Origin: a virus
Taxonomy: Duplodnaviria > Caudoviricetes
Direction: 5' to 3' (one strand)
Length of the DNA: 64,000 bases
IMG/VR virus record: IMGVR_UViG_3300006467_000454
Coordinates: 32,001 to 96,000 of that record
The translations under genes were made by a program, and so were the position numbers. Positions within the stretch are counted from its first letter, which is position 1; each line of letters opens with the position of its first letter. Positions 15,810 to 36,788 of this stretch are shown piece by piece. Below the pieces are notes generated by a model, which saw only the letters and a program-made list of their open reading frames with translations, did not search any database and was not told the origin of the DNA.

Positions 15810-16946
15810 ATGGGGAATAATGTAATGTTTTTCGGGCACAACAGGGTGTTCGGTACAGGACCTGCCGAGAACCAAGCGAGGGTAACTATTCGTGCTGCTA
15901 GGAGAATTACTTCTACTAGCGTACGATTTAGTGTCCTCCTTACGATAGATCAACCATTATCTGTTGTTTCGGATATTAGGGTTAGCCTATCAAGACCAGG
16001 AGGGGGTATATTCACCCTGTTTTATAATATCCCAATTGGGGCGTATTCTGATACAGTAGATATATTGATGACGGATGCACCTACGGATAACACTTTTGTT
16101 GCAACTGCGGAAATAACAACAATTAACACCGCTGGTGTTACAGGTTTAGGGAACACTGATACTATTTCTCCATCTGATATCCCTGATATTGCTTCCCCTA
16201 CATTTGTTGTAGCAAGTAGTTCAGTTGGGGATTCATCCCCAAGGGGCATGGCTTTCAGTTTAGATGGGTCTAAGATGTTCGTGATGGGGGGAACAGCAGA
16301 TAGCGTAAGGGAATTTAACTTGCCTACTCCATATTCTGTTTCAACGATATCGTTTACTAATGTCACCGTAAATGTTAATCCTCAAGACCAATTCCCAAGG
16401 GGCGTCAGATTTAACAATGACGGTAGAAGAATGTATATTACAGGTAGTGACCTTGATACCGTGGCGCAATATAATTTATCAACCCCTTGGGTTTTGAATA
16501 CTGCGGTTTTTAATAATCAAATAGCTGTAACTGCCCAAGATGGAACTCCAAGATCTTTATTTTTCCGGAATGATGGGGAGAAAATGTGGGTTGTAGGCAC
16601 TGATAATGATACTATTTTCGAATATGATTTATCAACCGCTTGGGAAATATCAACAGCAACTTATAACAATGTATCAATGGCTCTTAACACTGCTAACACA
16701 AATCCGGAAGGTGTGTCTATTGATCCTTCGGGGTTAAGAATTTGGGCTACTGATGATACTAATGACAGGATATATCAATATGACCTAACTACGGCATTCG
16801 ATATAACAACAATGGTTTATAATAATGTTTCATTTTCCACAGCATCCCAAGCCAGCCAGCCAAGAGATGTTGTCTTCAGCTTAGATGGGTCTAAGATGTT
16901 TATAATGGATGGAAATTTAGACAGGGTAAACGAGTATAATGTATAA
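15810..16946 (+). CDS. Beta-propeller repeat protein (fibre-associated)
   Basis: Five ~52-aa repeats: P-x-G/S-x-x-F-x-x-D-G-x-K/R-M...Y-D/N-L-S-T-A/P-W. Confidence 0.75.
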   Translation: MGNNVMFFGHNRVFGTGPAENQARVTIRAARRITSTSVRFSVLLTIDQPLSVVSDIRVSLSRPGGGIFTLFYNIPIGAYSDTVDILMTDAPTDNTFVATAEITTINTAGVTGLGNTDTISPSDIPDIASPTFVVASSSVGDSSPRGMAFSLDGSKMFVMGGTADSVREFNLPTPYSVSTISFTNVTVNVNPQDQFPRGVRFNNDGRRMYITGSDLDTVAQYNLSTPWVLNTAVFNNQIAVTAQDGTPRSLFFRNDGEKMWVVGTDNDTIFEYDLSTAWEISTATYNNVSMALNTANTNPEGVSIDPSGLRIWATDDTNDRIYQYDLTTAFDITTMVYNNVSFSTASQASQPRDVVFSLDGSKMFIMDGNLDRVNEYNV

Positions 16947-16984
16947 TTATTAGTATATTTAAATAAATTTTAAATAATTGTAAA

Positions 16985-17455
16985 ATGAAGAATAAAGAAT
17001 TGTATGAATTAGTTACCGTAATTGGTAGGCTGAATAATTTTGAAAACCTTGACCTTGGGTGGAAATTTGCAGAAATGAATATGCAAATTGAAGAGAAGAT
17101 TGAAAAGATTGATTTCTTGAAAAAATCCTTCAAGTACAATGACGAAGAAAATGAACTTGTACAGAAAATCCAAAAATTGGAAGGTAAGAAAGCTATGAGT
17201 ACATCTAATATGGAACTCTATAAGAAGCTTGATGAAGAGCTTGAGGCTTTATTGGAATCGGAAAAAGATCTTTTAGATTCAATGAAAAATAAAAGAGAAA
17301 AGGTTGCCGAGATTGATGAGTTAAGTGTTGACGAAGGTGAGGAATCAGGATTCAAACTTGTCCCTATCAAACTTTCCCAAGTGAAGAAAGAAGAAAAATT
17401 GATCAAGGCATTATCTACTTCGGATAAAAAATGGTTGCTAAAGGTCTGTAAATAA
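16985..17455 (+). CDS. Hypothetical coiled-coil protein (possible fibre chaperone)
   Basis: 156 aa, K/E-rich, after fibre genes. Confidence 0.45.
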   Translation: MKNKELYELVTVIGRLNNFENLDLGWKFAEMNMQIEEKIEKIDFLKKSFKYNDEENELVQKIQKLEGKKAMSTSNMELYKKLDEELEALLESEKDLLDSMKNKREKVAEIDELSVDEGEESGFKLVPIKLSQVKKEEKLIKALSTSDKKWLLKVCK

Positions 17456-17958
17456 TGGGTGATTATAAAGAAGAAAAAGGTACAACTAGAGTTGGGGATT
17501 TCTTAAGGAGTCTTGGTAACGTCGGGAAACCTATTTTAAAGGCAGCTGCTGGCTTAACAGGGCAAGAGTGGTTGAGTAACGTCGTTGATGGTATTAAAAC
17601 CTCTAAGGAACTCTCTGAGGAGCAAAAAAATTACGCCCTTGAACTCCATACATTGGATGCTAAAGATAGGGCAAGTGCTCGTGAAATGAACATTGAAATT
17701 CAAAAGTCCGAACATTCTTCTTGGTTAGCAAAAAATACTGGTTATATTTTAGATATGGCCAGTATCTTGATAGTTGCTGGAATACTGGTTGCGATTTTCA
17801 CCACAACCGTTCCGGAAGCGAACTCCGAGATTGCTTATTTGATTTTGGGGTATGTTATCAATGAATGTTTAAGCACTTGGAAATACCATAGGGGAAGCTC
17901 TGAAGGGAGTAAGTCTAAAACTTTGGAAATGTTCAGGTCTTTAAGGGGGAAGAGGTAA
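17455..17958 (+). CDS. Putative holin
   Basis: DRASAREM motif, two hydrophobic helices, C-terminal YHRGSSEGSKSK resembling the YYFGSSxGSxxK motif of phage holin-like proteins. Confidence 0.6.
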   Translation: MGDYKEEKGTTRVGDFLRSLGNVGKPILKAAAGLTGQEWLSNVVDGIKTSKELSEEQKNYALELHTLDAKDRASAREMNIEIQKSEHSSWLAKNTGYILDMASILIVAGILVAIFTTTVPEANSEIAYLILGYVINECLSTWKYHRGSSEGSKSKTLEMFRSLRGKR

Positions 17959-19518
17959 ATGGCGATTATAGAGAATAGATCTACTACAGAAGGGGATGTG
18001 TTAATTATACGGACTGAAGAGCCGATAGTTGGGCTTGTCTCCCTTCTTGGGTTTACTGACCAAACGGTTGGTGAAACCCCACAGGATTATTTTCGTAAAG
18101 AATTTAGATATTCTGTTAATGGGGGGCTAACTTATACCCCATGGGTAGAATTGACTTCCGCTAATATTATGTCAGCTAATGTTAGCAAAAAAGATAATTT
18201 CATCATTGAATATAGGTATATCCGAGTTGGTAATGTTGGAGAACTTGCATTTGAAAATATTTTATTGAATGGGCAATTTGAAGAATTAAATTACCCTATT
18301 TATGATAGGTTGCCATTTAGTGATTTCTTCCCAATAAAAGACCCAAATGTATTTGGGTGGGCTTTAAATGTTTTGGAGAAGCTTTACCAAAAAGGAATTC
18401 TTCCGGATTATGTTGAAAGGTTAGAAACAGGGGCTGTTGACGAAGATGAAGATTTTATCGCTTTCTGGAATTCAATTACAGAATTCTTTGCAATCCTTGT
18501 CTATTTTTCGAGACAATTCCAAAATTTGCATACTAATACAACCTTGTTAAGATTATTTGTAGAAACAAGAGGGTTGTTTACTTGTGATACTCAAGATTTA
18601 GAACAATTGAATTTCTTAGCTTCTAACCTTTACGATGAATATCGTAAGCGTGGGACTAGACAAATAAATTTACCAAAGTCTGGGGATGTTCCTGTTGATG
18701 GTGAATTATTGAGATTACTTTGTTGGGAAGCTAAAGATGAATTTATTTTTGCCCTTACTAAAAGGGGCGAGATGGGCTGGTGCCTTGGTAATTCATCCCC
18801 AATGTACACAGGGGCGGATGAGATTGTCAATATTAACAAATCTTATGAATTTACCCGTGAAGTTTTAGATCTCACCAAATATCCCCTAATAAACAGCAAT
18901 GATATCACATTAGAACAGAAGAACGGAATTTCTATGATGAAATTAACTACTTCCGGAGCTGATGCTGGTATTGGGAATTCTACAGAAACGGATAAGTTAA
19001 TCCCAATTGATAGTGGATTAGATTATATGTTGATGTTTAGGGTTATCGCTGAAGATTTAACGGCTGATTTAGATTTTGGTGTAGTAGTTTTCAATAAGGA
19101 TAGGCAGATTATTGGCATACAATCAATTGTGGATGGTTCCATTTCCAATATGTTCTTTGAAAATCAAGGGGTGAACCAAGCTGATGTAGAATATTGGGTT
19201 CGGGGTATTATTTTTAATTCGGGGAAAGCATTGAATTCTTCGGATTCCTTACCAATTGGATTTGGTAACAATCTAAGGTTCGTTGAAGGTGCAGAGTATA
19301 TCCTACCCGTAATCAAATGTAGTAATTCTACAAAATTTATCAATAGTATTGATGTGAGACCTTTAGCATTACCAATTTCTAGGGGGGTGCTCACCCCAAA
19401 GAATTTTACCTTTGGATATTTTGAAAATAATGGCAGCTTGAATGACGATGATGCTAAACTCGAGATAAATTCCAAACTGATTTCTTATAATCAGTTTATA
19501 AAAATAAAATGGTTGTAA
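17959..19518 (+). CDS. Putative baseplate wedge/tail structural protein
   Basis: 519 aa; LPDY..EDFIAF and YRKRGT segments reminiscent of P2 gpI-like wedge proteins. Confidence 0.45.
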   Translation: MAIIENRSTTEGDVLIIRTEEPIVGLVSLLGFTDQTVGETPQDYFRKEFRYSVNGGLTYTPWVELTSANIMSANVSKKDNFIIEYRYIRVGNVGELAFENILLNGQFEELNYPIYDRLPFSDFFPIKDPNVFGWALNVLEKLYQKGILPDYVERLETGAVDEDEDFIAFWNSITEFFAILVYFSRQFQNLHTNTTLLRLFVETRGLFTCDTQDLEQLNFLASNLYDEYRKRGTRQINLPKSGDVPVDGELLRLLCWEAKDEFIFALTKRGEMGWCLGNSSPMYTGADEIVNINKSYEFTREVLDLTKYPLINSNDITLEQKNGISMMKLTTSGADAGIGNSTETDKLIPIDSGLDYMLMFRVIAEDLTADLDFGVVVFNKDRQIIGIQSIVDGSISNMFFENQGVNQADVEYWVRGIIFNSGKALNSSDSLPIGFGNNLRFVEGAEYILPVIKCSNSTKFINSIDVRPLALPISRGVLTPKNFTFGYFENNGSLNDDDAKLEINSKLISYNQFIKIKWL

Positions 19519-21011
19519 TGGATAAAAGTGGAAATTTAAATATATATAGAAATCTGTTTTTAGATGTAGAAGAATTGAATAGATTTTTTGATTTCAATGA
19601 AAACTCTGTTTCAAACCTACTATTCACGATAAATGCTCAGAATTTTGGTGTGATAAATACAGCTCCGAATTTATCTGCGAATCAAAGTTTTTTGCTTTCA
19701 TCTGGTAGTGTTCCTGGGACTATTAGGTTGACGGATACTTCTTACGGTTTGGATAGTGGGGGACAATTCATTTTCCAAGAGCCTTTTGATAATTTACCTA
19801 TTCAGGACACTAATGGCAATGCTATACAGGATCAATGGGCTTGGGTTGTTATCCAACATAAGGAGGTGAAATATGAAGAGGGGATTGTTTCAATAGACGT
19901 TGATGGTAATCTCCGTGGAGTAAACACAGAATTCACAAGAGTTTTGAGGGGGCAAGGTAGTGGATTTTCTACATTTGTGAGGCTTTACACCCAAGGTGAT
20001 GACCGTGAAATTACACTTTCTACGTTGAATAGCCAATTATATGAGGTTACAGATTTGGTAGATGATACCTCTGTTATTTTAAGTGGGGATTTCCAAGCTG
20101 AGAGTAATCTAAGGTATGTTGTTTTTGGGACATTTGCTTTGGGGCAAGATTCTTCAGCGATAGCAGCAGGTGGTATCTACAATTACAATGGGACTAGAAT
20201 TACATTTATTCCGGAAGTCTTAACTGATTTCCCTCCTGTTGATTCAATAACCGCTGGGGAACAATTTTTTGTGGCAAGAGTATTTTGGAATACAACTACA
20301 AACATTGTTGAGGTTCAGGATAAAAGGAGTTTTACAGCGGTGAACCCTTTGACTTCAGAATCTACCACATTCAATAATTATTACCAATTGAATTTTGGGG
20401 ATATTATTGTGAACAATAAAGCTAATATTGATGCTTCAAATATCCCTACAGAATTTGCGGATGAATGGAGGGCAGCACTTTCTTTATTCTCTCAAGATGA
20501 AATAAATAATGCTTTAGGTAATAAAGCCAATCGTGGGGGGGATAATCTCCAAAACGTAGCAACATGGAGGCAGAATTTGGAAGTCCCTTCTAATACTGAA
20601 TTTGCGAATAAAGCGAATAAGGATGCCACGGGAATGAATACAGCCCAAATTAATGCTTGGAAGGCATTATTGGAGGTTCAAGCAGCACCAAGTGATACAG
20701 GCTGGATAGCTTGTGAGAATCCAAGTGGGCTTTCAAGTTTCAGTATTAGGGCAAGGCAAATAGGAAAACATATTATCATTGCAGGGAGTGTTTCATTTAC
20801 TGGTGGGAGTGATACAACCGTGTTTAGATTGCCAAGTGCAATACCAAACCCACCGTATGCAATGGGGTATTGTGCCCATACAGGAACTGGCGGAGAAAAT
20901 AACAGGGCAGTCAACATAAGGATGCTAGCAAATGCGAACACTTGTGTTGCATACGATGCTGATGAAGACCTTGCTATCTACATCAATTTTTCTTACTTTA
21001 CAAGTAATTAA
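19509..21011 (+). CDS. Putative tail fibre/baseplate structural protein
   Basis: 500 aa; repeated NKAN coiled segments and C-terminal SDTGWI...ARQIG...FRLP fibre-tip-like domain. Confidence 0.6.
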   Translation: MVVMDKSGNLNIYRNLFLDVEELNRFFDFNENSVSNLLFTINAQNFGVINTAPNLSANQSFLLSSGSVPGTIRLTDTSYGLDSGGQFIFQEPFDNLPIQDTNGNAIQDQWAWVVIQHKEVKYEEGIVSIDVDGNLRGVNTEFTRVLRGQGSGFSTFVRLYTQGDDREITLSTLNSQLYEVTDLVDDTSVILSGDFQAESNLRYVVFGTFALGQDSSAIAAGGIYNYNGTRITFIPEVLTDFPPVDSITAGEQFFVARVFWNTTTNIVEVQDKRSFTAVNPLTSESTTFNNYYQLNFGDIIVNNKANIDASNIPTEFADEWRAALSLFSQDEINNALGNKANRGGDNLQNVATWRQNLEVPSNTEFANKANKDATGMNTAQINAWKALLEVQAAPSDTGWIACENPSGLSSFSIRARQIGKHIIIAGSVSFTGGSDTTVFRLPSAIPNPPYAMGYCAHTGTGGENNRAVNIRMLANANTCVAYDADEDLAIYINFSYFTSN

Positions 21012-21013
21012 TT

Positions 21014-21568
21014 ATGAGATTATTCTATACAATAACAAGTGGGGTTGATCAAATTCAACCAAAGCCGAGTAATTCACTGGGGGGGTTCAGGTCTTCTTCA
21101 CCTGTCCCAAATGGCACATTTAGTAATCTATTTGGGGAAATCAGTAAGTTAACTGTACAGCGTGGGGATAGACCTCAGTACATTGGGTTGATTTTAAGGA
21201 ATGAAACAGGGGCAGCCGTAACAAATGTTGAGATTTGGTTTGATTATCCTGAGGGGGCTTATTCTACATTTAGAATCGCTGCTGTTGCTTTGACAGCAAA
21301 TGGGCAAATGGAAGATGTTCCGAATTCATATTCTAAACCCCTTAACGCAACATTCTTTGAAGCTAACGGATCAGCTAATCTAGTTGGGGTTGGTGATATT
21401 GCACAAGATGGGCAATTGGGGATATGGATTGAACGTACTTTGGACATTGATTTAATCAGGCAAACTCAAGCTAATATTTATGAGCCAACCGCCGAAGACC
21501 CTAGGAGATTCCAACCTATTGAATTAGATAAAGTGGAAGATATAAAAATTAATATTAAATGGGATTAA
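21014..21568 (+). CDS. Putative virion structural protein
   Basis: 184 aa ending the tail block; SLGGFRSS...NLFGEIS...GIWIER. Confidence 0.5.
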   Translation: MRLFYTITSGVDQIQPKPSNSLGGFRSSSPVPNGTFSNLFGEISKLTVQRGDRPQYIGLILRNETGAAVTNVEIWFDYPEGAYSTFRIAAVALTANGQMEDVPNSYSKPLNATFFEANGSANLVGVGDIAQDGQLGIWIERTLDIDLIRQTQANIYEPTAEDPRRFQPIELDKVEDIKINIKWD

Positions 21569-23137: not shown

Positions 23138-23797
23138 ATGTATTCACCGTATCAAAATTTTGCTGTGGTCGATGTCGAAACGGGAGGGCTCCTGACTAAG
23201 GAGAAGAAAGCCGTGTATGATATCGCTCTCACAGAGATCGCAATAGTTATTGTTGATAGCAATTTGGAAATAGTCCATAAGGATAGTTGGTTGATAAAGC
23301 CTTATAATGATGCTGAGTATCAGCCAGGAGCGGAAAAGGTGTCCGGAATATCTAAAAAGATGTGTGAGGAAGATGGTGTCGATATTGAATTTGCTTGTAA
23401 AGAATTCATAAAGGTAGCCAAGAAATATAAGGTTCATTCCAAGCCACCTACTTTAGTTGGGCATAATTATATCAAGTTTGATAAGTTTTTTGTTGAGAAT
23501 TTCTTAGCTTATTGTGGGGAAGATATCAACAAGTATTTCAATAAAGAACCTGAGGATACCATTAAATTTGCTAGGATGAAAAAGCCTGAGGCAAGTGGGT
23601 ATAGCTTAGGGGAAAGTTGTGTTGGTGCAGAAATTAATTTGGTACAAGCCCACAGGGCATTGCCAGATACGATAGCAACAGCAGAGCTTTGGATTTCCTA
23701 CCTAAAGGGATTAAGGGGGCTGAATTCTCCTAAAAAGTCCAAAAAAGGTAAAAAGGAAAAACCAGAAAAACGGTTTAGACAAAAATTTGAAATTTAA
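23138..23797 (+). CDS. DEDDh 3'-5' exonuclease (DnaQ/epsilon-like)
   Basis: VVDVETGG (ExoI), VGHN..KFD (ExoII), AHRALPD (ExoIII). Confidence 0.9.
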   Translation: MYSPYQNFAVVDVETGGLLTKEKKAVYDIALTEIAIVIVDSNLEIVHKDSWLIKPYNDAEYQPGAEKVSGISKKMCEEDGVDIEFACKEFIKVAKKYKVHSKPPTLVGHNYIKFDKFFVENFLAYCGEDINKYFNKEPEDTIKFARMKKPEASGYSLGESCVGAEINLVQAHRALPDTIATAELWISYLKGLRGLNSPKKSKKGKKEKPEKRFRQKFEI

Positions 23798-25464
23798 TGC
23801 TAATTCCCCCAACACTGTCTACAGTTCAGTTACATAATTCTTTCAATTATGCGGAAGATATTGTAAAGAATTTGTCCGACAAAGCAATTACAGAATTGCT
23901 AGAGGGGTACGGCAATGACATAGATAAACTATTAGATTCTATATTGGTTGAAACAAATAATATTATTAATTTTAACCACGAAAAAATAGAATCAAGCAAT
24001 CTTCACTACCTATCACATTTAGAGCAATCTATGCATAGTGAGTTGAAGAGGGTTTGCTACAATTATTTTAAAACAACTTGCCTCCCAGAATTTGATCAAA
24101 ACTGGAGAAATTTAGAATGGGGGAATATGGCTCAGCTTTATTCCCATTTAGGTTTATTGGCAAGCCGTTCTTCCGGAAAAAGTTATGAATTTAGTTTAGC
24201 TTATCCGATATGGAAAATGTATAGGTATCGTCGCCCAAATATGGGTCGTGATACTTATGACAATAAAATGTCAAAGGAAGGGGTAATTGTAACAAATGCT
24301 TTGAATTTAGGTAGAAAGCTCTTATCTAAGATTAATGAGGAAATCATGGTAAATGATATTCTTCGTGAAGAATTAGTTGGGGTAAAAAGGTCAGAATCAC
24401 AATTAGGTGCTGATAAAATTATCACAAAGAAAGGCTCAATGGTTGAACTTAGGTCTTTCGGGAACTCTATTCGTGGTTTGCACCCAGGATGGATAGTCGT
24501 AGATGATTTCCTTGATAAATCAGCTATCTATTCCCAGGAGCAAAGGGAAAAATTTAAAGAGGTTTTCACAGCGGAAATTATGCCCGCATTGGAACCTAAA
24601 GGGAATATAATCGTAGTAGGTACACCATTTCACCCAGAGGACTTGTATGGTCTTGTATTAAGGAAAGATGGTCGCTTCATGCTGTTTGAATATCCTTCAA
24701 TTTTCCCTGATGGAAGATTATTAGCACCTGACCGTTATGACTACGATAAGTTGATGCAAGAAAAGAATACTCTTGGGTCAATGGTTTTTGCTCGTGAGTA
24801 TTTGATTACACCGATTTCAGATACTTCTTCTATTTTCCCTTGGGAATTTCTTAAGAAGTCATTTATCGGGATGGAGAATATCAACTTTGCTGATAATATT
24901 TCATCATATCCAATAAAGCTGAAACGTGTTATCACGGCGTGTGACCTTGCAATTACTGGTAATGTAGGTGGTGACTATTGTGCTTTTATTACTTTAGGGG
25001 TTGATAATGATAATAATATCTATATCATTAACGTTTGGCATAAACACGGTGCTTCTTACGATGAGCAAATTAATCAAATTGCAAGCATCAATCAAAGGTT
25101 TAAGCCTAATAAAATTGTAATAGAAAATAATGGCTTCCAAAGAGTAATCGCTGATTTAGCAAGGAATATGGGGTTAAAGAATATCTCAGAATTCCATCAA
25201 GGTACTTTGAAGAAAGATTTAAGAGAAGGATTTCCAGCATTGAGTGCAACGTTTGAGAGGGGTGCTATAAAAATCCCATATAAGGATGGGGCAACTCGCA
25301 ACATGGCAAGTGTACTATGTAGGGAATTAAATTCGATAACTTTCCATGAGGATAGTGGTAAGCTAGAAGCAGCGTCAGGGCATGATGATTTAGCCCATGC
25401 ACTTTATATTGGATTCCATGAATTAATTTTCAATAAACGGAATATTAATTTCCATTTAATTTAA
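23797..25464 (+). CDS. terL: Terminase large subunit
   Basis: Walker A ASRSSGKS, IRGLHPGWIVVDD Walker B, VGTP coupling motif, nuclease ACDLA...GGDY...HDDLAHA. Confidence 0.9.
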   Translation: MLIPPTLSTVQLHNSFNYAEDIVKNLSDKAITELLEGYGNDIDKLLDSILVETNNIINFNHEKIESSNLHYLSHLEQSMHSELKRVCYNYFKTTCLPEFDQNWRNLEWGNMAQLYSHLGLLASRSSGKSYEFSLAYPIWKMYRYRRPNMGRDTYDNKMSKEGVIVTNALNLGRKLLSKINEEIMVNDILREELVGVKRSESQLGADKIITKKGSMVELRSFGNSIRGLHPGWIVVDDFLDKSAIYSQEQREKFKEVFTAEIMPALEPKGNIIVVGTPFHPEDLYGLVLRKDGRFMLFEYPSIFPDGRLLAPDRYDYDKLMQEKNTLGSMVFAREYLITPISDTSSIFPWEFLKKSFIGMENINFADNISSYPIKLKRVITACDLAITGNVGGDYCAFITLGVDNDNNIYIINVWHKHGASYDEQINQIASINQRFKPNKIVIENNGFQRVIADLARNMGLKNISEFHQGTLKKDLREGFPALSATFERGAIKIPYKDGATRNMASVLCRELNSITFHEDSGKLEAASGHDDLAHALYIGFHELIFNKRNINFHLI

Positions 25465-27840: not shown

Positions 27841-28335
27841 ATGGCAAACAAAAGTAGGCACATTCCTATTTCGGAATATTATTCTATTTTGCAATTAGAA
27901 TATATATCGTTTAGGCTTCGTGAAGCTATTTATCAAAAGAAGTACTCAGAGAAGTACAAACCTTATTGTGAAGGTAAAAAAGAAAAGATTGAAAGTATTG
28001 CATTGCAAAATTGTTTACCTTCAATTTTTAATTCGGAAACCTCAAGAGAAAAATATTTGGGGAAGTTTTTCAATGAATTTGGATTGCCCAATTTTACCTA
28101 TAAGAATGAAGATTCTAAGGAGAAAATGGGTAAGTGGGATAAGTATTATTATTTTTCTCCTGGGACTTCCGTTAAATTTAAGGTAGAAGATAGCAAGGAT
28201 ATCCAAATCGGGACTATCGTTTCTAATTTGATTGAGGAAGAATCAGTTGTTGTAAAAACAATTGAAAAAGAAGAATTCACGTTGGCATATAGCAAAGTTG
28301 CCCGTATGCTCGTGGAAAGTTTGTTTAATTTTTAA
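27841..28335 (+). CDS. Hypothetical protein (SH3-like C-terminus)
   Basis: 164 aa between primase and dUTPase. Confidence 0.5.
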   Translation: MANKSRHIPISEYYSILQLEYISFRLREAIYQKKYSEKYKPYCEGKKEKIESIALQNCLPSIFNSETSREKYLGKFFNEFGLPNFTYKNEDSKEKMGKWDKYYYFSPGTSVKFKVEDSKDIQIGTIVSNLIEEESVVVKTIEKEEFTLAYSKVARMLVESLFNF

Positions 28336-28345
28336 TTTTTGGAAA

Positions 28346-28861
28346 ATGTTAAATGTAAAAATCAAGCCTGAAAGAATCAATTTTCAGAAACCAGTAAAAG
28401 GAAGTAAAGATGCAGCGTGTTGGGATGTTTATGCTTCCAAAATTGAAGAAAAGCCAGATGGGTTGGTGATTGTTTATTTAGGGTTCAGTACTGAAATCCC
28501 TGTTGGCTATAAGGGTGTTATCGTAGCCCGTTCCAATATCACTAAATATGGCTGGTGTATTCCTAATGCTCCTGGACAAATTGATCCAGATTTCCGCAAT
28601 GAGTGGCAAGTTAGATTCCGCAGATTGCCTATGTTCCGTGAAAAAGAATTAGTGGGGAATCCACGTTGTAAAAACGGGGAAGGGGAATTGTATTCCAAAA
28701 CTCAAGATTTCTTAGAGATGCATTCGTTCCCTTATAAGCAAGGTGAAAGGGTTGCCCAAATCTACTTTGAAAAAGAAGAAGAAGTTGTTTGGCAAGAAGT
28801 TAAAGAAACCAATGATACCGAGCGTGGCTTGGGTGGCTTTGAAAGCACTGGGAGATCATAA
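28346..28861 (+). CDS. dut: Trimeric dUTPase with internal insertion
   Basis: Motifs AACWDV, ARSN, GQIDPDFRNE, ERVAQ, RGLGGFESTG. Confidence 0.9.
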   Translation: MLNVKIKPERINFQKPVKGSKDAACWDVYASKIEEKPDGLVIVYLGFSTEIPVGYKGVIVARSNITKYGWCIPNAPGQIDPDFRNEWQVRFRRLPMFREKELVGNPRCKNGEGELYSKTQDFLEMHSFPYKQGERVAQIYFEKEEEVVWQEVKETNDTERGLGGFESTGRS

Positions 28862-28989: not shown

Positions 28990-29964
28990 ATGGGCGTAAG
29001 CGTAAAAGATGTATTGAAAAGAAAATACAAGAAACTGAAAGATGATGAGATCATCGATATGTTATCAACTGAGTTGAAAGAAGAAGAACGTGAAGTTCTT
29101 TTGGAACTTGCTAAGAAAAGGAAAATCATTAATGATATTCCGGAATCTACTGAGGAAGTTGAAGAAATTCCTTATGAAAAACCTGACGCTAAATTGGTGA
29201 AAAAGGCTGTGAAAATTTTTGATGATTTTGCCGAAAATCAGGAAACTGATCTTTACGGTAAGGCAGCGGAGATCATTAAAGATCGTGAAATTTCTGAACT
29301 TTCTAAGCATGAAGTTGAAGCGATTATTGCTTTGAAACCTGCTACAAAACGTAAAAAGGCTCCAGCAAAGGCAAAAACTGAAAAACCTGAAAAAGCGGAG
29401 AAAAGTGAAAAGGCTGCTAAATCCGGAAAGGGAAAAGGCAAGGAGAAAGAAAAGGTTGAAGAGCCTAAAGCTGAAGAAAAAGTAGAAAAGCCTGAAAAAA
29501 CGGAAAAGAAAGAAAAAGCTGTTTCGTTTAAAGCCTTTAAGGATCTTGCCATGAAAGCGGAAAACGTGAACGATTTTTATGAAGCCGTTAAGGAAATGAA
29601 AGATGTTCCTAAGAAAACTGTCGATAAGTTTTATAAGAAGTACGGTCAGGATGGTAAATTGGCGGAGTTTGAAGCCCTTAAAGTTTTCTATGATGAAACT
29701 ATGGAAAAGAAAGAAAAGGCTAAAACAAGCAGCAAGCGTAAGCCATTTGTGGAGCTTGATGAATCTGCTGAGGTTAAAGGTTTGAAACTTGGTTCAAAAG
29801 TTTCTTTCAAAGCTCACCACCTTTCTAAAAAAGCAGGTGAACAAATTAAGGGTAAAGTTACCCGTATCATCATTGCTAATCGTGATAGCAAGGAGTACAT
29901 CAAAATTGAAACCAAAAATGATGGTGAATTCCACAAGAGAGCGAATTCTGTAGAAATATTATAA
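28990..29964 (+). CDS. Lys/Glu-rich protein, possible nucleoid/DNA-binding protein
   Basis: 324 aa, histone-H1-like KPATKRKKAPAKAKTEKPEKAEK linker, SH3/KOW-like C-terminus, own promoter. Confidence 0.55.
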   Translation: MGVSVKDVLKRKYKKLKDDEIIDMLSTELKEEEREVLLELAKKRKIINDIPESTEEVEEIPYEKPDAKLVKKAVKIFDDFAENQETDLYGKAAEIIKDREISELSKHEVEAIIALKPATKRKKAPAKAKTEKPEKAEKSEKAAKSGKGKGKEKEKVEEPKAEEKVEKPEKTEKKEKAVSFKAFKDLAMKAENVNDFYEAVKEMKDVPKKTVDKFYKKYGQDGKLAEFEALKVFYDETMEKKEKAKTSSKRKPFVELDESAEVKGLKLGSKVSFKAHHLSKKAGEQIKGKVTRIIIANRDSKEYIKIETKNDGEFHKRANSVEIL

Positions 29965-29973: not shown

Positions 29974-31035
29974 ATGTATAATAATCGTATTGTCATTGAT
30001 TTAGATGACACAATATCCGTTACATTTGATAGGGACTGGGAAAATTCAACCCCAGTCCTTCCTGTCATTGGAAAAATTAATCAACTGTATGATTTAGGTT
30101 GGGAGATTTGCATTGTTACTGCAAGGGGTCAATTAAGTTGTAAAGGAGATTCAAAAAAAGCCGATGATAAATACCGTACTCAAATTGAAACTTGGCTCAA
30201 GAAACACGGAGTCAAATACACTTCTTTATCATTTGAGAAAGTATTAGCCACATATTATGTTGATGATAAATCATTGTCACCTGAGGATTTCACAAAATTG
30301 AATGTTGTGGGATTACAGGGGGGATTGTCTGGCGCCAAAATTGAAAAGGTGGGGGATAAGGTTTACAAGACACATAAAAACTCTCTTCAGGCTGTTAAAT
30401 GGTATTCCATAATTGAAAACTATGATATTCGTATTCCTAAAATACATAGTATTATTGGGGATACTATTTGCATGGAATATATAGAGGATTGCCCAATAAA
30501 GCAACCCCATTTCCCTAGCCTTACAAAAGCCATTGATATTTTTTCTGGGATTAAGGTGAAAGGGGTTCCGTTTGATAATTATATTGAGCGTATCCATAAG
30601 CATGCGGAATATCATGGTGAGTTTTCTGAGATAGTTGACGAATTGGTTTTACATTCAAAATTTTATGAGGAGTTTTCTTCATTTTGTCATGGGGATTTTT
30701 CTATTGATAACATTTTAATCGATAGGAAAGGTTCCCATTATTTGATTGACCCAATTTATGAAGAAGATTCATGGAGTTCATGGCTTTTGGATGTTTCTAA
30801 ATTGGCTCATTCTTATAGAAGGTATGATAAAGTTGATACCCTTTGGAATATTTATGAGCATTATAGGCATAAGGTAGACTGGAATCATCTTAAACTATTA
30901 GAAATAACTCAATGGATCAGGGTGCTAAAATACCTTAAAGACCAGAGGGAGATAAACAGATTTAGAAACACAATAGACGTTATGATGTATGAATATTTTG
31001 GTAGAAATAGAAAACCTAAAACTAAATGGTTCTAA
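29974..31035 (+). CDS. HAD phosphatase (EcbF/BcbF-like) fused to APH/choline-kinase-like phosphotransferase
   Basis: IVIDLDDTI, VTARG, YYVDDK (HAD); GGLSGA, MEYIE, HGDFSIDNIL, LIDP (kinase). Confidence 0.85.
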   Translation: MYNNRIVIDLDDTISVTFDRDWENSTPVLPVIGKINQLYDLGWEICIVTARGQLSCKGDSKKADDKYRTQIETWLKKHGVKYTSLSFEKVLATYYVDDKSLSPEDFTKLNVVGLQGGLSGAKIEKVGDKVYKTHKNSLQAVKWYSIIENYDIRIPKIHSIIGDTICMEYIEDCPIKQPHFPSLTKAIDIFSGIKVKGVPFDNYIERIHKHAEYHGEFSEIVDELVLHSKFYEEFSSFCHGDFSIDNILIDRKGSHYLIDPIYEEDSWSSWLLDVSKLAHSYRRYDKVDTLWNIYEHYRHKVDWNHLKLLEITQWIRVLKYLKDQREINRFRNTIDVMMYEYFGRNRKPKTKWF

Positions 31036-31426
31036 AATAGGCTTCACTGCAAGCTCTTTTGATTTGATGCATCCTGGACATATCGCAATGTTATCAGAAG
31101 CAAAATCAAAATGTGATTACTTGATAGTGGGGTTGTTGACAGACCCAACAATTTCTAGGTACGGTTCAAAAAATAAGCCTGTCCAAACTACTTTTGAAAG
31201 GTTCATTCAGGCTCAAGCTTTAGGCTGTGTTGATTTCATAATCCCATTTGATACCGAAGAAGATTTGGAGCAAATGTTGAAATTGATAATGCCTGACATT
31301 CGGTTCGTTGGTGAGGAGTATAAAGATAAAGATCACACGGGTAAAAATATCGATGGGATTGAAATCTTTTACAATAAGCGAAAGCATAATTATAGTTCTT
31401 CAGAATTAAGGGGGAGGTTAAAATGA
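30989..31426 (+). CDS. HxGH cytidylyltransferase (TagD/glycerol-3-phosphate cytidylyltransferase-like)
   Basis: FTASSFDLMHPGH, DYLIVGL, KPV...ER, RKHNYSSSELR. Confidence 0.88.
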   Translation: MNILVEIENLKLNGSKIGFTASSFDLMHPGHIAMLSEAKSKCDYLIVGLLTDPTISRYGSKNKPVQTTFERFIQAQALGCVDFIIPFDTEEDLEQMLKLIMPDIRFVGEEYKDKDHTGKNIDGIEIFYNKRKHNYSSSELRGRLK

Positions 31427-33936
31427 AAAGATATAAAATAGCATATATGGTGCATCGTGGGGATACCAATGGAGGATTCCCACAGCACACGGAAACTATT
31501 ATCCATGCCTTAAAGGAATTAGGGCATCAGGTTAAATTCTTCTATCTGGATTATTGCGTTGGGGATAAAGCTTCTTTTATGGCTAAGAAAGTAGAACTTT
31601 TCCAGAATGGAGAGCTGATGCGTCAGGGTCATGAATTGCAAATCACCAAAGGGATAGGGACAGGGGAGTTTTACGATTCTGAAAAGGGTTGGTTTTGTCC
31701 AGTAACTCCATATAAAAATATGGATGATAAAAAGAAGCTGAAAGCAGAGTTGGAAGAATACGACGCTGTATTTTGGCATACTCCATTTTGGTTCAAACAA
31801 AAGCCTACATTAATGGATACGGATTGGCCAATGTTATTGGATTTGGAAAACCCAGTAAATATTGGAATGGTTCACGATGCTAATTTAAGGGCAAATGGGG
31901 CGTGGCAGTATTTTATAAGCAAATACTTTGACAAAATAATTACAGTCCATTTTGCTTCCTACAATTCAGCCTCAGTGCTACCTGTAAAACGTACCTTGAT
32001 ATTCAATCCTCAGGATTTATCAAAAGTGGATGAATCCCATACTAATTTCAAGAATATCAAGAAAACGGGGAAGATATTCTCACTCCAGAATTGGAAGGGT
32101 AGCAAGCATGTTGATGATTTGATTCGTGCAGTACCTTACTTTTCAAAGAAGGTGAAAACAGTCGTTGCAGGGGATGGGATTGAAGCCCGTTATATGTTTG
32201 GCTCCAAGGAAAAGATGAAACCTCAGTATTATTGTACTAAGGCTAAGGATCCGGATTTGCCTGAAAAATTAGAGGGTAAATTGACAATTGCTGAAAGGGC
32301 TCAGGAAACTGGACGATTTGAAAAATTGTTTTGGCTTGATTCAGATAATCGTGATAAACAAATGTCTGAAGCTGCTTTCTTTATTGATACAGCTTGGTAT
32401 AGTGTGAATAAAGAATTGGGAAGCCACTTTTCTAGAACGTTAATTGAAGCCATGATGGCAGGTTGTGTACCTATCGCCAGAAACTTTGGATTAAGTGATA
32501 ATGCGGAAGGGTTGGGTGAGTTATTTAAATCCAATATAAATTACATAATGATCCCCCATGATGCAACCCCTGCTGAATTCGCTGAAATTGTTAACAATGC
32601 GTTCAAAATGGACAAGAAAGAGTACAAGCGTATTGTAAAAAACAATTATAAACTCTTGGAAAATTTTTGTATGCTTAATGTAGCAAAGCAATATATCAAG
32701 TTAATAGAAGATAAAAAGACTGGATTCTTTGATAAATATGAAGTTGGTGAACCGACTGAGGAGTTTATCAAAAAGGCTGAATTGCAATGGTTCGGTACTG
32801 GAGATAAAAGGACTTTTAACTTCAAAAAAGAAGAAAGCATGGTTGAAGAAACCCCAGAGGATAAAAAGCCTAAAAAAGAAAAGGCTGAAAAACCTAAAAA
32901 TGAAGAGGGCAAAAAGGAAAAGAAGTCAAAGTCCCCAAAACCAAAAGGGAAATGTGAGTTCACCCCTAATGAGAATTTCAAATATTATTTCTATTGGATT
33001 AGTGAGCGAATGAAAATATTCTGGGAACGGAATAAGGGTGAGGAAGCTCCTTGGACTGAGGATAAGATTTTGAATGATCATAAATTTACCAACGTTTATC
33101 GCTGCTTGGATCGTACAAGCCAATATTTGATAAAGCATATTATCAACGATACGAAGAAACGTTCCAAAGAAGAATTGTTTTGGAGAATATTATTATTCAA
33201 ACATTTCAATTCTCCTGATACTTGGATAGCCTTAGAAAAGAAATTCGGGGATATTACCTTAGAAACTAAGGTGAAGAAAATTATTAAGTTCCTTGAAAAG
33301 TACAAGAATGAAGGGAATACCATTTACAGTAATGCTTATATGATGACAGCTTCCTTTATGAAGAAGCCAGAATTCATGAAAAAGTATAAAATGGGGGATT
33401 CAAGGAGTAAGCATGAAGCCTATCTTAAAATGCTTTGGAATGTCTTTATTGAGGAAGGGCTTGCAAAGAAAATTATTAAAAGTAAATCTTTGGAAGAGGT
33501 ACAAGGTAAATTTAAGGAGGTTATTACTATTGGTGATTTCTTAGCGATGCAATATACCATTGATATCAATTACAGTAAGTTGATTGATTTTAGTGAAAAC
33601 GATTTTATCGTTGCAGGTCCTGGGGCTATACGTGGAATTGACCGTACATTCGATATTGAGAGTGCTCCAGATTATCAAAAGATCATCAAGTGGGTTCACA
33701 AGAACTTTGATAAGCTGGCTAACGAATACGGGTATAAATTTAAGCCCCTCCCAAAACGTGCCTTGACTTTAATTGATTTGCAGAATTGCTTCTGTGAAAC
33801 GGATAAATATTTGAGAGGGCGTGGTATCGATAATCCTAAAAAGGAAGTCGGTGGAAAACGCATCAAACAAGTATTCACTCAAAACACAGATAAAATTGAA
33901 TATGTACTTCCCGAGAAGTGGGAAATAAAATTGTAA
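31423..33936 (+). CDS. GT-B glycosyltransferase fused to 5hmdU-DNA-kinase helical domain (aGPT-Pplase1/HMUDK_hel-like)
   Basis: aa1-465: NGG..H...LKELGH, K.SKHVD, AGDG, FSRTLIEAMMAGCVPI; aa~510-837: YWISER..I....APWTEDKIL..HKFTNVYR..DR.SQ, LLFKHFN, YSNAY, IGDFLA.QY..D, AGPGA.RG, DLQNCFCETDKY.R. Confidence 0.85.
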   Translation: MKRYKIAYMVHRGDTNGGFPQHTETIIHALKELGHQVKFFYLDYCVGDKASFMAKKVELFQNGELMRQGHELQITKGIGTGEFYDSEKGWFCPVTPYKNMDDKKKLKAELEEYDAVFWHTPFWFKQKPTLMDTDWPMLLDLENPVNIGMVHDANLRANGAWQYFISKYFDKIITVHFASYNSASVLPVKRTLIFNPQDLSKVDESHTNFKNIKKTGKIFSLQNWKGSKHVDDLIRAVPYFSKKVKTVVAGDGIEARYMFGSKEKMKPQYYCTKAKDPDLPEKLEGKLTIAERAQETGRFEKLFWLDSDNRDKQMSEAAFFIDTAWYSVNKELGSHFSRTLIEAMMAGCVPIARNFGLSDNAEGLGELFKSNINYIMIPHDATPAEFAEIVNNAFKMDKKEYKRIVKNNYKLLENFCMLNVAKQYIKLIEDKKTGFFDKYEVGEPTEEFIKKAELQWFGTGDKRTFNFKKEESMVEETPEDKKPKKEKAEKPKNEEGKKEKKSKSPKPKGKCEFTPNENFKYYFYWISERMKIFWERNKGEEAPWTEDKILNDHKFTNVYRCLDRTSQYLIKHIINDTKKRSKEELFWRILLFKHFNSPDTWIALEKKFGDITLETKVKKIIKFLEKYKNEGNTIYSNAYMMTASFMKKPEFMKKYKMGDSRSKHEAYLKMLWNVFIEEGLAKKIIKSKSLEEVQGKFKEVITIGDFLAMQYTIDINYSKLIDFSENDFIVAGPGAIRGIDRTFDIESAPDYQKIIKWVHKNFDKLANEYGYKFKPLPKRALTLIDLQNCFCETDKYLRGRGIDNPKKEVGGKRIKQVFTQNTDKIEYVLPEKWEIKL

Positions 33937-33940: not shown

Positions 33941-34966
33941 ATGTATATTTTTGAAAACTTGAATTCGGCTTTAGTTGGGATGTGTTCTAACTTACTGGAG
34001 TATGGGGAAACAAGGGAAACAAGGGGGCATCATTGCGTTGAGATACCTTATCCCGTTTTAATCTGTATTAACAACCCGACTGACAGGTATGTGACTATCC
34101 CTGAAAGAAAATGGAATAAGGTCTTGCCGTTTGCGGAAAGCCTTTGGTTGGCGTTGGGGTTAAATGATTTGGATGAATTGCCAGGAAATTATGTGAAGAA
34201 TTTGTATAATTTTTCAGATAATGGTAGAACGTGGCGTGCAGGTTATGGTCCGAGAATGAGATACTTTAGTGGGCATGGTTCTGATTATGATATTAGTAAA
34301 CGTGATGAGGCTAAAGTTTACTCTGGGGATATTAACCATACTGACCAGTTGAAGTTTGTTATTGATACTTTAAATAGGGATATCAATAGCCGACAAGCTA
34401 TCATTACAATCCATGACCCTGCAAAGGATGACTTTGATCGTGATGGTGGGCTAAAGGTTACAAAAGACCAACCTTGCACACGTAGCATCCATTTCCAAGT
34501 AAATACCAAGGGGGAATTGGATTGCATCGTTGACATCCGTTCTAACGATGTTTTGTGGGGATTCTCAGCGGTTAACGTCATTAACTTTGCTATCATGCAA
34601 GAATACGTTGCTAATATTATGGGGCTGCCTATTGGTAAATATTATCATTTTGCCCATAATTTCCATTATTATGAAGATTTTGAAAGTAGAGTAGTTGAGC
34701 TGAGAGATGTTGGGTTTTCTGACCCTAATTACCATAAAGAAAGTGTTAAGTTCCAATATAAGGATCCGATTGGGGACCTTGAGAACTTTGATTTCCTATT
34801 GGATTTATTGTTTGATTATGAGAAATCACTTCGTGAGGGATATTCGTTGCCTTGTGATTTAGGTAATGATATGTTCAATGACTGGGCTAAAGTGTTCTAT
34901 AACTATTGGACTAAGCAGCCAGTGTATTTTGAAAATCCACATTTAAATAAATTGTTTAATATTTAA
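33941..34966 (+). CDS. Thymidylate synthase homologue, probable dUMP hydroxymethylase
   Basis: AGYGPR, SRQA, KDQPCT (catalytic Cys), RSNDVLWGFSAVN (Asn = uracil-type), HNFHYY; lacks a canonical ThyA C-terminal end. Confidence 0.8.
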   Translation: MYIFENLNSALVGMCSNLLEYGETRETRGHHCVEIPYPVLICINNPTDRYVTIPERKWNKVLPFAESLWLALGLNDLDELPGNYVKNLYNFSDNGRTWRAGYGPRMRYFSGHGSDYDISKRDEAKVYSGDINHTDQLKFVIDTLNRDINSRQAIITIHDPAKDDFDRDGGLKVTKDQPCTRSIHFQVNTKGELDCIVDIRSNDVLWGFSAVNVINFAIMQEYVANIMGLPIGKYYHFAHNFHYYEDFESRVVELRDVGFSDPNYHKESVKFQYKDPIGDLENFDFLLDLLFDYEKSLREGYSLPCDLGNDMFNDWAKVFYNYWTKQPVYFENPHLNKLFNI

Positions 34967-34973: not shown

Positions 34974-35645
34974 ATGGCATTAAATGACTATCGATATAAG
35001 TATATTTATGCAACATTTAATTTAGTGAATGGTAAATTTTATGTCGGTAGCCATATGTCCAATAAAGATCCTAATTCTGATAAATACCTTGGCTCTGGTG
35101 TTAGGATTAAATACGCCATAAGGAAATATGGTAGGGTTAATTTCAAAAGGGAAATTATTGAATTTTACCACGGAGAAGATATTGAAGAATTTAGGGATTT
35201 AGAAACTTATTGGATAAATTCTTTAGAAGCCGTAACATTAGGGTATAATCTAAAAGAATCAGCTAATTCCCCTTATACTGAAGGTAAAAGTGTTGGGGAT
35301 AAAATAGCAAAAACATTGAGGGGTGTCCCAAAATCAGAATCCCATAAACGGAACCTTAGTAAAAGTAAACAAGGTTCAAAGCCATGGAATTTAGGGGTCC
35401 CATGTAGGGAAGAAGTGAAAAAGAAGATACAAGCCACTTCTAAGAAAAGGGTCATCCCTAGGGAACATATTGAGAAAATGCATAAAGCTGTTACAGGTGT
35501 TCCGAAGAGTAAAAGGTTCAAGAAAATTATATCTGATTCTTGGAAGAATAGGGAGGAAATAAAATGCCCTCATTGTGGGTTAAAAAGTAAAAGTTTAGGT
35601 AACATGAATCGTTACCATTTTAATAATTGTAAATCAAAATCGTAA
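34974..35645 (+). CDS. Free-standing GIY-YIG homing endonuclease (Seg-like, NUMOD3-type repeats)
   Basis: YIY.T.N..NGKFYVGSH...YLGSG...KYG..NF.REI...E; GYN; repeated GVPKS..HK..S; terminal CPHC. Confidence 0.88.
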   Translation: MALNDYRYKYIYATFNLVNGKFYVGSHMSNKDPNSDKYLGSGVRIKYAIRKYGRVNFKREIIEFYHGEDIEEFRDLETYWINSLEAVTLGYNLKESANSPYTEGKSVGDKIAKTLRGVPKSESHKRNLSKSKQGSKPWNLGVPCREEVKKKIQATSKKRVIPREHIEKMHKAVTGVPKSKRFKKIISDSWKNREEIKCPHCGLKSKSLGNMNRYHFNNCKSKS

Positions 35646-35649: not shown

Positions 35650-36165
35650 ATGCTAAGCATTGGTTATTATCGTAAAATGAAAAGGGTTAAAAGGCTCGGG
35701 CTATCATTCATCCATAGGGAGTATTCGCTATTGGAGCACCAATATATGGTAGGTATGTTGTTTAAGTATTTTGCATCAAAGGAAAATGTCCCTTATGATA
35801 TTCACGTTTGGGATTTAGTTCTTCACCACGATGCATTGGAAGTCGAAACAACAGATTTAATTTCAACCGTGAAAAAACTTTCCAAGAAAACTCAAGAAGC
35901 TTGGGAAGTCATTGAGGAGGAAGTTATCAACAAACATTTCCAGTTAGAAAAATACAGTGATAAAAGATTTAAGGAAGGCATGACACCCCTCCAGCATAAG
36001 CTGTTTAAAGCTTGTGATTATCTTGACTTGTGGATTTTTATCAAGGAAGAAGTAGCCATCGGAAACAAATCAAAAGATATTTTGGAAATCCTAGGGCGGT
36101 GTGACGAAATGATAGGCACGGATTTCCTACATATCCGTAAATTCATGGAGGGATTTAAATGCTAA
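35650..36165 (+). CDS. HD-domain 5'-deoxynucleotidase (YfbR-like)
   Basis: MKRVKR...YSLLEH...LHHDALE...TDL..VK...KACD. Confidence 0.8.
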   Translation: MLSIGYYRKMKRVKRLGLSFIHREYSLLEHQYMVGMLFKYFASKENVPYDIHVWDLVLHHDALEVETTDLISTVKKLSKKTQEAWEVIEEEVINKHFQLEKYSDKRFKEGMTPLQHKLFKACDYLDLWIFIKEEVAIGNKSKDILEILGRCDEMIGTDFLHIRKFMEGFKC

Positions 36166-36788
36166 ATGTATGGGTATATTTAGGAGTAAATGGGTCTGGA
36201 AAAGACTTTCAGGCTAAATTGAAATCTGAGGAGTTAAAGGTTTTACCTTTTGATTTTAGTGATGGAGTTCGGGAATACACGTTTGCTTTCCTGGGTTGGA
36301 CTCCCCCCAATAAAGATGATTATGAGGCTTGGAAATCAGGTCAATCAACTATGTTTATGCCAGAGGGGCTGAGTGCCTATTCCATAAAAATGCGCAAGGG
36401 GCGTGAGTTCTTAGATAATGTTGGCAAAAAGATGAGGGATTTTGACCCTGATTTTTGGGCAAAACATACCGTAAGTAAAGCCACTGAATATTATCAACAG
36501 GGGGTGGAGAATATTATCTTTTCTTCTTGTAGGTATATAAATGAAGCAAAAGCAATTTTAGATTTCGTTTATAGTGCAGGTGGGGATGATGCAAATGTTA
36601 ATTTCATATTCTGTGATTACCAATCAACGAAATATGATGACACTTACAGGGAATATCAAGAATTAGCCTTAATCCTTAGAGATATGGGGGCTGGTGACCT
36701 TGAGAAAGTTAACGAAAAAATTTATTATTTAATTGCCAATTATGAAAAAGTTGCTCAAGTTTTTAGAAGCGAATCGGATAGAGCATAA
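36159..36788 (+). CDS. Deoxynucleoside monophosphate kinase
   Basis: P-loop GVNGSGKD, FSDGVR, GREFL..VG..R..DPDFW, CRYINE (T4 gp1-like). Confidence 0.8.
   Translation: MLNVWVYLGVNGSGKDFQAKLKSEELKVLPFDFSDGVREYTFAFLGWTPPNKDDYEAWKSGQSTMFMPEGLSAYSIKMRKGREFLDNVGKKMRDFDPDFWAKHTVSKATEYYQQGVENIIFSSCRYINEAKAILDFVYSAGGDDANVNFIFCDYQSTKYDDTYREYQELALILRDMGAGDLEKVNEKIYYLIANYEKVAQVFRSESDRA

Follow-up and report, generated by a model that had tools for sequence, protein, structure and literature searches.

A glycosyltransferase fused to the HMUDK_hel domain in a phage genome without a 5-hydroxymethyluracil DNA kinase

The stretch of DNA analysed here, referred to as the window, comprises 64,000 nucleotides (positions 32,001 to 96,000 of IMG/VR record IMGVR_UViG_3300006467_000454, a virus of the Caudoviricetes) and belongs to a complete genome of 108,320 bp with direct terminal repeats and a G+C content of 36%. 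One gene on its plus strand, P0001 (nt 31423–33936), is a single open reading frame (ORF) of 837 aa that joins a glycosyltransferase (GT) domain of the GT-B fold to an alpha-helical domain known as HMUDK_hel or aGPT-Pplase clade 1, which elsewhere accompanies kinases acting on 5-hydroxymethyluracil (hmU) in DNA. The fusion is genuine and specific to the lineage, and it unites two genes that are neighbours in a conserved phage module. In the known route of thymidine hypermodification, hmU is acted on by a kinase and then by an amino-acid transferase (the clade-2 enzyme). Each of the two domains, the hmU pathway, the sugar-donor kit described below and the co-occurrence of a thymidylate synthase (TS), aGPT-Pplase1 and a GT are already on record; the fusion, the combination of a nucleoside diphosphate (NDP)-sugar kit with hmU and the helical protein, the exchange of kinase and GT cassettes, and the absence of both an hmU DNA kinase and a clade-2 enzyme are new.

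The fused gene and its two domains

A preliminary description, made from the sequence alone, had proposed an 837-aa ORF starting with a GT-B domain and continuing through a Lys/Glu/Pro-rich linker, and this architecture was borne out. The frame is uninterrupted over nt 31423–33936, and it is divided into a GT4-like GT-B domain of the retaining type (nt 31423–32832, aa 1–470), a linker of 42 aa rich in Lys, Glu and Pro (nt 32833–32958, aa 471–512) with no counterpart in either stand-alone protein, and the aGPT-Pplase clade 1/HMUDK_hel domain (nt 32959–33933, aa 513–837), which has an all-alpha, helix-hairpin-helix glycosylase-like fold; all three lie on the plus strand. The linker was assigned to aa 471–512 because the stand-alone GTs end at aa 470 (..FNFKKE) and the stand-alone helical protein of a related locus, L001, starts aligning, with its residue 3, at aa 513. 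An in-frame ATG at nt 32839, pointed out in the same description, is present and encodes Met473 inside the linker, a candidate start for the separate helical product proposed there; no Bacteroidota-type TAnnTTTG promoter box was seen by eye in the 140 nt upstream of it. At its start, the fused gene shares 4 nt with the end of the upstream nucleotidyltransferase gene, and its own stop lies 4 nt before a TS-like gene.

In every relative found, the GT and the helical protein are encoded by separate genes of one module, and at one locus (L008) the two genes overlap, so that a single indel in an assembly or a sequencing error could have joined them; the same arrangement is the obvious precursor of a genuine fusion. 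All copies of the fused ORF may, moreover, derive from one sample. However, a shifted overlap is not what the junction shows. Both proteins keep their complete ends there and are joined in frame by 42 aa whose composition is typical of a linker. From run SRR5579849, a Logan contig that was 100% identical over 3152 nt carried the same fused ORF, which was also recorded from an ENA contig, so that the IMG/VR, Logan and ENA assemblies agree, and the genome itself is a complete contig with terminal repeats. An artefactual origin is therefore regarded as extremely improbable.

The fusion appears to be confined to this phage. No isolated phage matched the region in Megablast, and tblastn revealed none with a GT-helical fusion. 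In a collection of 5.8 billion proteins the sole full-length match was the window's own protein, and every GT homologue there was stand-alone. When 1.84 billion representatives were searched exhaustively without a profile, 3602 helical-domain homologues emerged, the best 150 of which were surveyed for architecture; no second fusion of a GT with HMUDK_hel was present among these 150, most of which were stand-alone proteins of 310–370 aa, with about 25 kinase fusions. Other partners in this set were MazG plus MazG_C, an MT-A70 methyltransferase (P0215) and a radical-SAM protein (P0023), and the helical domain was further observed in a Poly_export/SLBB-annotated sequence (P0059, perhaps a mis-call); no discussion of the last three was found in the available literature.

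The preliminary assignment of the C-terminal part to aGPT-Pplase1/HMUDK_hel was upheld by Pfam, in which HMUDK_hel (PF18723) matched aa 518–798 with 288 bits (cut-off 25; E 1e-85) over profile positions 3–273 of 281. The same part belongs to PHROG 2396, an unannotated family, and shared 46% identity over 336 aa with the L001 stand-alone protein. Neither a P-loop kinase domain (PF02223 or HMUD2, PF18747) nor a Pfam match at E ≤ 1 to the clade-2 family ADDT (PF18724) was detected in the fused protein, and ADDT was also absent from the genome. Since the kinase domain is missing from both the protein and the complete genome, the fused protein is not a 5-hydroxymethyl-deoxyuridine (5-hmdU) DNA kinase (5-HMUDK).

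An AlphaFold2 model of the helical domain, based on an alignment of 93 stand-alone homologues (A2), had a pLDDT of 95. Foldseek returned weak matches only, while VIA-align gave as the best match gp46 of phage PaMx11 (PUGT, 8z2n_B; Z 11.3, root-mean-square deviation 4.1 Å, 232 residues aligned), followed by the queuine-salvage enzyme Qng1 (Z 10.6) and about 40 helix-hairpin-helix DNA glycosylases (Z 5–8.6); the top 42 rows (Z 5–11.3) consisted exclusively of these three kinds of protein, confirming the glycosylase-like fold anticipated earlier. Neither the protein sequence nor a profile from alignment A2 retrieved anything from the PDB, and the link to gp46 comes from fold comparison alone. PaMx11 gp46 is a clade-2 aGPT-Pplase, a glycine:DNA transferase that takes its target thymidine into the pocket by base flipping (PMC11472151).

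A C-E-x-x-K-Y motif (Cys791-Glu792-Thr-Asp-Lys795-Tyr796; codons at nt 33793–33810, plus strand) constitutes a candidate nucleophile site. Its Cys was conserved in 90 of 91 viral homologues and its Glu, Lys and Tyr in 91 of 91, all four being kept in at least 90% of alignment A2. Together with several Arg, Asp and Gln residues, the motif was retained in 89–91 of the 91 viral homologues, whichever partner they have, and R560, D563, Q710, D714, C791, E792, K795 and Y796 are all present in the fused domain. A weak hhalign match (probability 6.8%) aligned Cys791 with the catalytic Cys247 of gp46, and a Gln-Asn pair with the metal ligands Glu243-Thr244 of that enzyme.

The N-terminal domain matched Pfam Glycos_transf_1 at aa 211–410 with 30.5 bits, just above the cut-off of 26.4, and was co-linear from the first to the last residue with 21 stand-alone homologues (460–490 aa, 34–64% identity; alignment A1). 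Residues G17, G18, E24, H151, D152, K225, K228 and R338 were invariant in this alignment, and E342 was kept in at least 90%. Foldseek matched the AlphaFold2 model (pLDDT 94) to glycogen synthase, HepE, BshA, PimA and MshA (E 7e-15 to 1e-12; TM-scores up to 0.58/0.73) and to the T4 alpha-glucosyltransferase 1y6f (E 3e-11). As modelled, this domain is a retaining GT-B fold of the GT4/GT5 type.

Kinase or glycosyltransferase as companion of the helical gene

Gene neighbourhoods were typed for the best 80 of 540 viral loci encoding a helical-domain homologue. The 26 closest (40–52% identity) all have the window's gene frame, TerL-DnaB-primase-dUTPase-[X]-HEL-TS-HD-dNMPk-PolIIIa. HMUD2 (PF18747, "5-hmdU DNA kinase 2") was present in 21 of them and the GT module in four, with no locus carrying both; thus, the kinase and the GT kit are mutually exclusive at this slot. 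The HMUD2 gene abuts or overlaps the helical gene in about two-thirds of the 21 loci, with a 4-nt overlap in eight. The earlier statement that the GT head stands in place of a kinase is well supported, the genome being free of an hmU DNA kinase and its sister loci carrying HMUD2 where the sugar kit is located here.

The GT, a HAD-APH protein, a nucleotidyltransferase, one stand-alone helical protein and a TS-like gene were observed in every related locus with enough flanking sequence (GT identity 33–64%), with a gene order that varies among relatives. The six GT-module genomes, five of them at least 99% complete, each encode exactly one HMUDK_hel domain, and a PF02223-type hmU DNA kinase, HMUD2 (PF18747) and ADDT (PF18724) were absent from all six, the complete genome of the window included. 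In the tree, the fused domain fell into a clade (SH-aLRT 99) with stand-alone proteins, those of GT modules among them; other helical proteins of GT modules clustered with those of ViI-like and PaMx11 phages.

In 54 more distant loci, a TS-like gene lay beside the helical gene in 32. The neighbours in this set also included an unrelated GT of the GT-A family (TAGT) in eight loci, P-loop nucleotide kinase 3 in eight, ADDT (clade 2) in seven and a type-1 kinase in three; no kinase or ADDT was located within 5 kb in the TAGT loci. Brevibacterium phage LuckyBarnes has a run of genes for TS, two GTs and the helical protein, and a pelagiphage study describes TS and aG/PT-PPlase1 as partner genes, occasionally with a GT (PMC9599517). 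From this typing of neighbours it follows that the constant core consists of the hmU synthase and the helical protein and that the kinase or GT is an exchangeable companion, which gives the earlier statement of a GT in place of a kinase its strongest backing. Together, the fusion and the exchange amount to Rosetta-stone evidence for a helical protein that acts on the same base as whichever enzyme derivatises the hydroxyl.

Several features of the related loci were recorded in addition. A conserved 240-aa protein of no known family is encoded on the upstream side of the HMUD2 gene in 13 sister loci of the kinase type, immediately before it in L027 (nt 8526–9248), and is a candidate further member of the hypermodification pathway. 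The large terminase of L027 (nt 3212–5311) has a Hom_end-associated Hint (intein-like) domain, which the window terminase (nt 23797–25464) is without. In PaMx11, gp49 (gp49-gp50 at nt 17218–18674 of L024), experimentally shown to be a 5-hmdU DNA kinase, is labelled "terminase small subunit" in RefSeq, and its neighbour gp50, labelled "hypothetical", was recognised by hhalign (probability 99.7%) as a helical protein of clade 1. The alpha subunit of DNA polymerase III (PolIII-alpha), a single ORF of 1132 aa in the window, is encoded in two to three pieces in relatives (L001, nt 13828–17401; L009, nt 15374–21317; L010, nt 15375–19923), with at least a 252-aa ORF between pieces of 533 aa and 943 aa; this could reflect a split gene, an intein or the insertion of a homing endonuclease.

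Gene neighbourhood and predicted pathway

The fused gene lies in a tightly packed, same-strand run of genes encoding, in order, a dUTPase-family protein, a 324-aa orphan, HAD-APH, a nucleotidyltransferase, the fusion, the TS-like protein, a GIY-YIG protein, an HD-domain 5'-deoxynucleotidase, a deoxynucleoside monophosphate (dNMP) kinase-like protein and PolIII-alpha. The dUTPase/dCTP-deaminase family protein (nt 28262–28861, plus strand) is predicted to supply dUMP and remove dUTP. The TS homologue (nt 33941–34966, plus strand), identified by Pfam and by TS alignment, is a predicted dUMP hydroxymethylase yielding 5-hydroxymethyl-dUMP. A HMMER comparison with Staphylococcus aureus TS and MilA, a low-identity pairwise alignment whose residue reading is hence a prediction, showed Cys146, Asp169 and Asn177 to be kept and Leu143 to be replaced by Asp. 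This pattern fits published rules by which Cys146 is catalytic, Asn177 denotes uracil, an acidic residue other than Leu at position 143 denotes hydroxymethylation and Asp169 argues against a 5-hydroxy synthase (PMC13326640), and the prediction was made on this basis. The best phage matches of the TS homologue include the "deoxyuridylate hydroxymethyltransferase" of the SPO1 group. Judged from these residues and matches, hmU very probably takes the place of T when the phage replicates. The HD-domain, YfbR-like 5'-deoxynucleotidase (nt 35650–36165, plus strand) is predicted to remove dTMP or other dNMPs from the pool, and the dNMP kinase-like protein (209 aa, PHROG 139; nt 36159–36788, plus strand) to convert hydroxymethyl-dUMP to the diphosphate.

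The 209-aa protein was considered as a split-off hmU DNA kinase and rejected, since it has no similarity to 5-HMUDK and belongs to a dNMP-kinase PHROG. The GIY-YIG/NUMOD3 homing endonuclease gene (nt 34974–35645, plus strand) separates the TS-like and HD nucleotidase genes, which are directly adjacent in L001, L009–L011 and L027, and it looks like a recent mobile insertion. The 324-aa ORF (nt 28990–29964, plus strand), inserted between the dUTPase-family and HAD-APH genes, had a poor Atlas model (pTM 0.24); searches of Pfam, PHROGs, NCBIfam and PADLOC assigned it to no family, and it had no informative Atlas neighbour and had no homologue in related loci, and was rejected as a member of the module because it has no family and is absent from relatives.

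Immediately upstream of the fused gene, two genes complete a sugar-donor kit. The first (nt 29974–31035, plus strand) encodes a 353-aa predicted sugar-phosphate kinase/phosphatase, composed of a HAD-phosphatase (aa 4–112) and an APH-like kinase (aa ~210–305); it matched TIGR01689 (E 4e-16), APH/RIO families, PHROG 1238 and, in the PDB, 1xpj and the capsule biosynthesis protein 9iqw, and it is conserved beside the GT gene in all relatives. The second (nt 30989–31426, plus strand) encodes a small nucleotidyltransferase of 145 aa (CTP_transf_like), nearest to heptose-1-phosphate adenylyltransferase (HldE domain II), with E values of 9e-24 for TIGR02199 versus 1e-11 for glycerol-3-phosphate cytidylyltransferase and 2e-34 for PHROG 7878. 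A kinase joined to a phosphatase would fit a bisphosphate intermediate, as in ADP-heptose synthesis. By family signatures, an adjacent kit of HAD-APH, CTP_transf_like nucleotidyltransferase and GT4-type GT-B is thus present here. In the metaviromic contig 53, HAD-APH, a cytidylyltransferase-like protein and a GT4-type GT-B produced mono- and di-heptosyl-5-hydroxymethylcytosine (5hmC) in E. coli, all three genes being needed and the trio being reported as required and sufficient (preprint, bioRxiv 10.1101/2023.12.21.572611). The labels used there (TIGR01689, TIGR02199, BshA-like) are the same as the search results for this locus. By analogy, heptose is the best guess for the donor sugar.

These observations suggest a pathway in which the fused protein acts on hmU in DNA. 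The dUTPase-family protein, TS-like hydroxymethylase, dNMP kinase, HD nucleotidase and PolIII-alpha would, from gene content, place hmU in DNA instead of T at replication. By analogy with the tested trio, HAD-APH and the HldE-II-like nucleotidyltransferase would make a nucleotide-activated sugar, most likely NDP-heptose, which the retaining GT-B domain would transfer onto the hydroxymethyl oxygen of hmU in DNA. The helical domain would grip the DNA by its helix-hairpin-helix, flip hmU into the Arg/Asp/Gln/Cys-Glu-x-x-Lys-Tyr pocket and present the base or, possibly by a covalent bond, activate it, a job that would be the same as that performed beside hmU DNA kinases. That the pocket does not differ between kinase-linked and GT-linked forms suggests a helical step independent of the nature of the O-substituent. 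The analysis established which domains and folds are present, the synteny, the exchange of kinase and GT and the lack of an hmU DNA kinase; the proposal that the GT head glycosylates the hydroxymethyl group while the helical domain binds, flips and possibly activates the base is considered somewhat probable.

Several points weigh against parts of this pathway. With respect to the sugar, the family scores of the nucleotidyltransferase are all below the curated cut-offs, and its PDB matches are mixed, the best solved relative being ethanolamine-phosphate cytidylyltransferase, such that a sugar other than heptose is possible; heptose is only a guess for these reasons. With respect to the helical domain, the contig-53 trio glycosylates 5hmC without a helical partner, and the GT may thus not need one. 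For phages M6 and ViI, a kinase and a clade-2 transferase were enough in vitro, with the clade-1 proteins dispensable, and the SP10 kinase was active without its C-terminal helical domain (PMC8989533), results that argue against an obligatory presenting role. The near-invariant Cys-Glu motif, in turn, suggests that the helical domain has a chemistry of its own rather than one of mere presentation, and the conservation of the motif indicates catalysis, probably by a thiol attacking C6 of the flipped base. The preliminary proposal that the domain is a modular recognition and base-flipping unit, or that the protein performs two successive chemistries, is plausible, but a purely passive recognition role fits poorly with a C-E-x-x-K-Y motif kept in 90–91 of 91 viral homologues.

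The main rival is a protein with two chemistries, in which the helical domain would be an enzyme whose Cys791 attacks C6 of the flipped pyrimidine, as clade-2 transferases do, and alters the C5 substituent, for example by exchanging or removing the group installed by the GT (or kinase), converting unglycosylated hmU to T, or installing the acceptor for the GT. The C-E-x-x-K-Y motif and Arg560, Asp563, Gln710 and Asp714 vary little or not at all in kinase-linked and GT-linked homologues alike, gp46 is the closest fold, and the Cys and Gln-Asn of this domain were aligned with Cys247 and Glu243-Thr244 of gp46. SP10 has a clade-1 domain with no clade-2 enzyme detected (PMC5889632), L027-type phages have a kinase and a helical protein with no PF18724 match in ten ORFs scanned around the helical gene, and hypermodifying phages turn leftover hmU to T by an enzyme yet to be named (PMC8989533); no activity of a clade-1 helical protein was found assigned in the available literature on thymidine hypermodification. 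On the other hand, that hhalign alignment is a weak one; a glycoside leaves much less readily than a phosphate, yet the pocket motif is the same in both kinds of homologue; no partner nucleophile or reductant is evident in the operon; and the published reconstitutions worked without clade-1 proteins. A second chemistry is accordingly held to be unlikely, though by no means negligible. Far less probable is another acceptor for the GT module, namely a glycan of the host or phage, a protein or hydroxymethylcytosine, with the helical domain as unrelated cargo. GT4 enzymes do act mostly on the cell envelope, and several databases label the homologues "glycosyltransferase involved in cell wall biosynthesis", but the module is always situated among genes for nucleotide metabolism and replication, beside a TS-like gene with the dUMP-type Asn177 and the hmU-linked helical protein, the homologous contig-53 trio acts on DNA, and the GT here is fused to a domain that handles DNA bases; such an acceptor is very improbable.

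The fusion, together with the exchange of companions, delineates a branch of the pathway that lacks a kinase, and it predicts a new substitute for thymine that bears a sugar. A wider proposal, that an ether of hmU with heptose or another phage-made sugar is an undescribed DNA base and that the clade-1 protein is a general hmU-handling catalytic subunit with a C6-attacking cysteine, on which kinase and GT heads are interchangeable over one base-flipping engine, is tentative, and the balance lies against it to a limited extent. The helical domain is widespread, and the fusion gives a clear experimental handle on it, as a single polypeptide allows its contribution to be measured directly. Modified bases matter for the escape of phages from restriction and for the sequencing and cloning of phage DNA, and the enzymes are candidate tools for labelling hmU.

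Comparison with known systems

The same co-occurrence of a TS-like gene, a clade-1 protein and a GT, with no kinase, is described for HTVC023P-type pelagiphages (PMC9599517) and was seen in LuckyBarnes. Their GTs are small, of the GT-A/TAGT type and encoded by separate genes; in the text consulted, no genes for donor synthesis accompany them, and they have no assigned function. Glycosylation of 5-hydroxymethylpyrimidines in DNA is known from T4 alpha-glucosyltransferase (GT72) and the trypanosome base J glucosyltransferase, base J being glucosyl-hmU, but these enzymes belong to other GT families, use UDP-glucose from the host pool and have no accessory helix-hairpin-helix domain.

Contig 53 (bioRxiv 10.1101/2023.12.21.572611) has, by family signatures, the same three-part kit, with a GT resembling BshA and the T4 GTs. 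In that system, 5hmC is made post-replicatively by a methyltransferase and TET, and there is no helical partner, whereas here the base would be made pre-replicatively by the TS homologue of the dUMP-hydroxymethylase type and the GT is tied to HMUDK_hel. PaMx11 gp46 (PUGT), representing the clade-2 amino-acid:DNA transferases (PDB 8Z2M/8Z2N), acts on a flipped-out 5-substituted uracil in DNA and, besides being the best fold match, has a Cys at the equivalent helix position. The domain described here differs from it in having no Pfam ADDT match, marginal sequence similarity and Gln-Asn instead of the Glu-Thr metal ligands, and in belonging to a phage that cannot make the phosphorylated substrate.

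The nearest helical relatives (48–52% identity) are those of the HMUD2 sister phages (L027–L052), which share the frame from terminase to PolIII-alpha; their upstream slot is occupied by the kinase and the 240-aa protein rather than by HAD-APH, nucleotidyltransferase and GT, and their genes are separate, not fused. The closest parallel in architecture is provided by SP10 gp186 and other proteins of 540–600 aa combining PF02223 with PF18723, which have the same C-terminal HMUDK_hel domain (40–45% identity), the same order of head followed by helical domain and the same context of hmU-containing DNA. Their head is a P-loop kinase, whereas that of the fused protein is a GT-B domain, for which O-glycosylation rather than O-phosphorylation is predicted.

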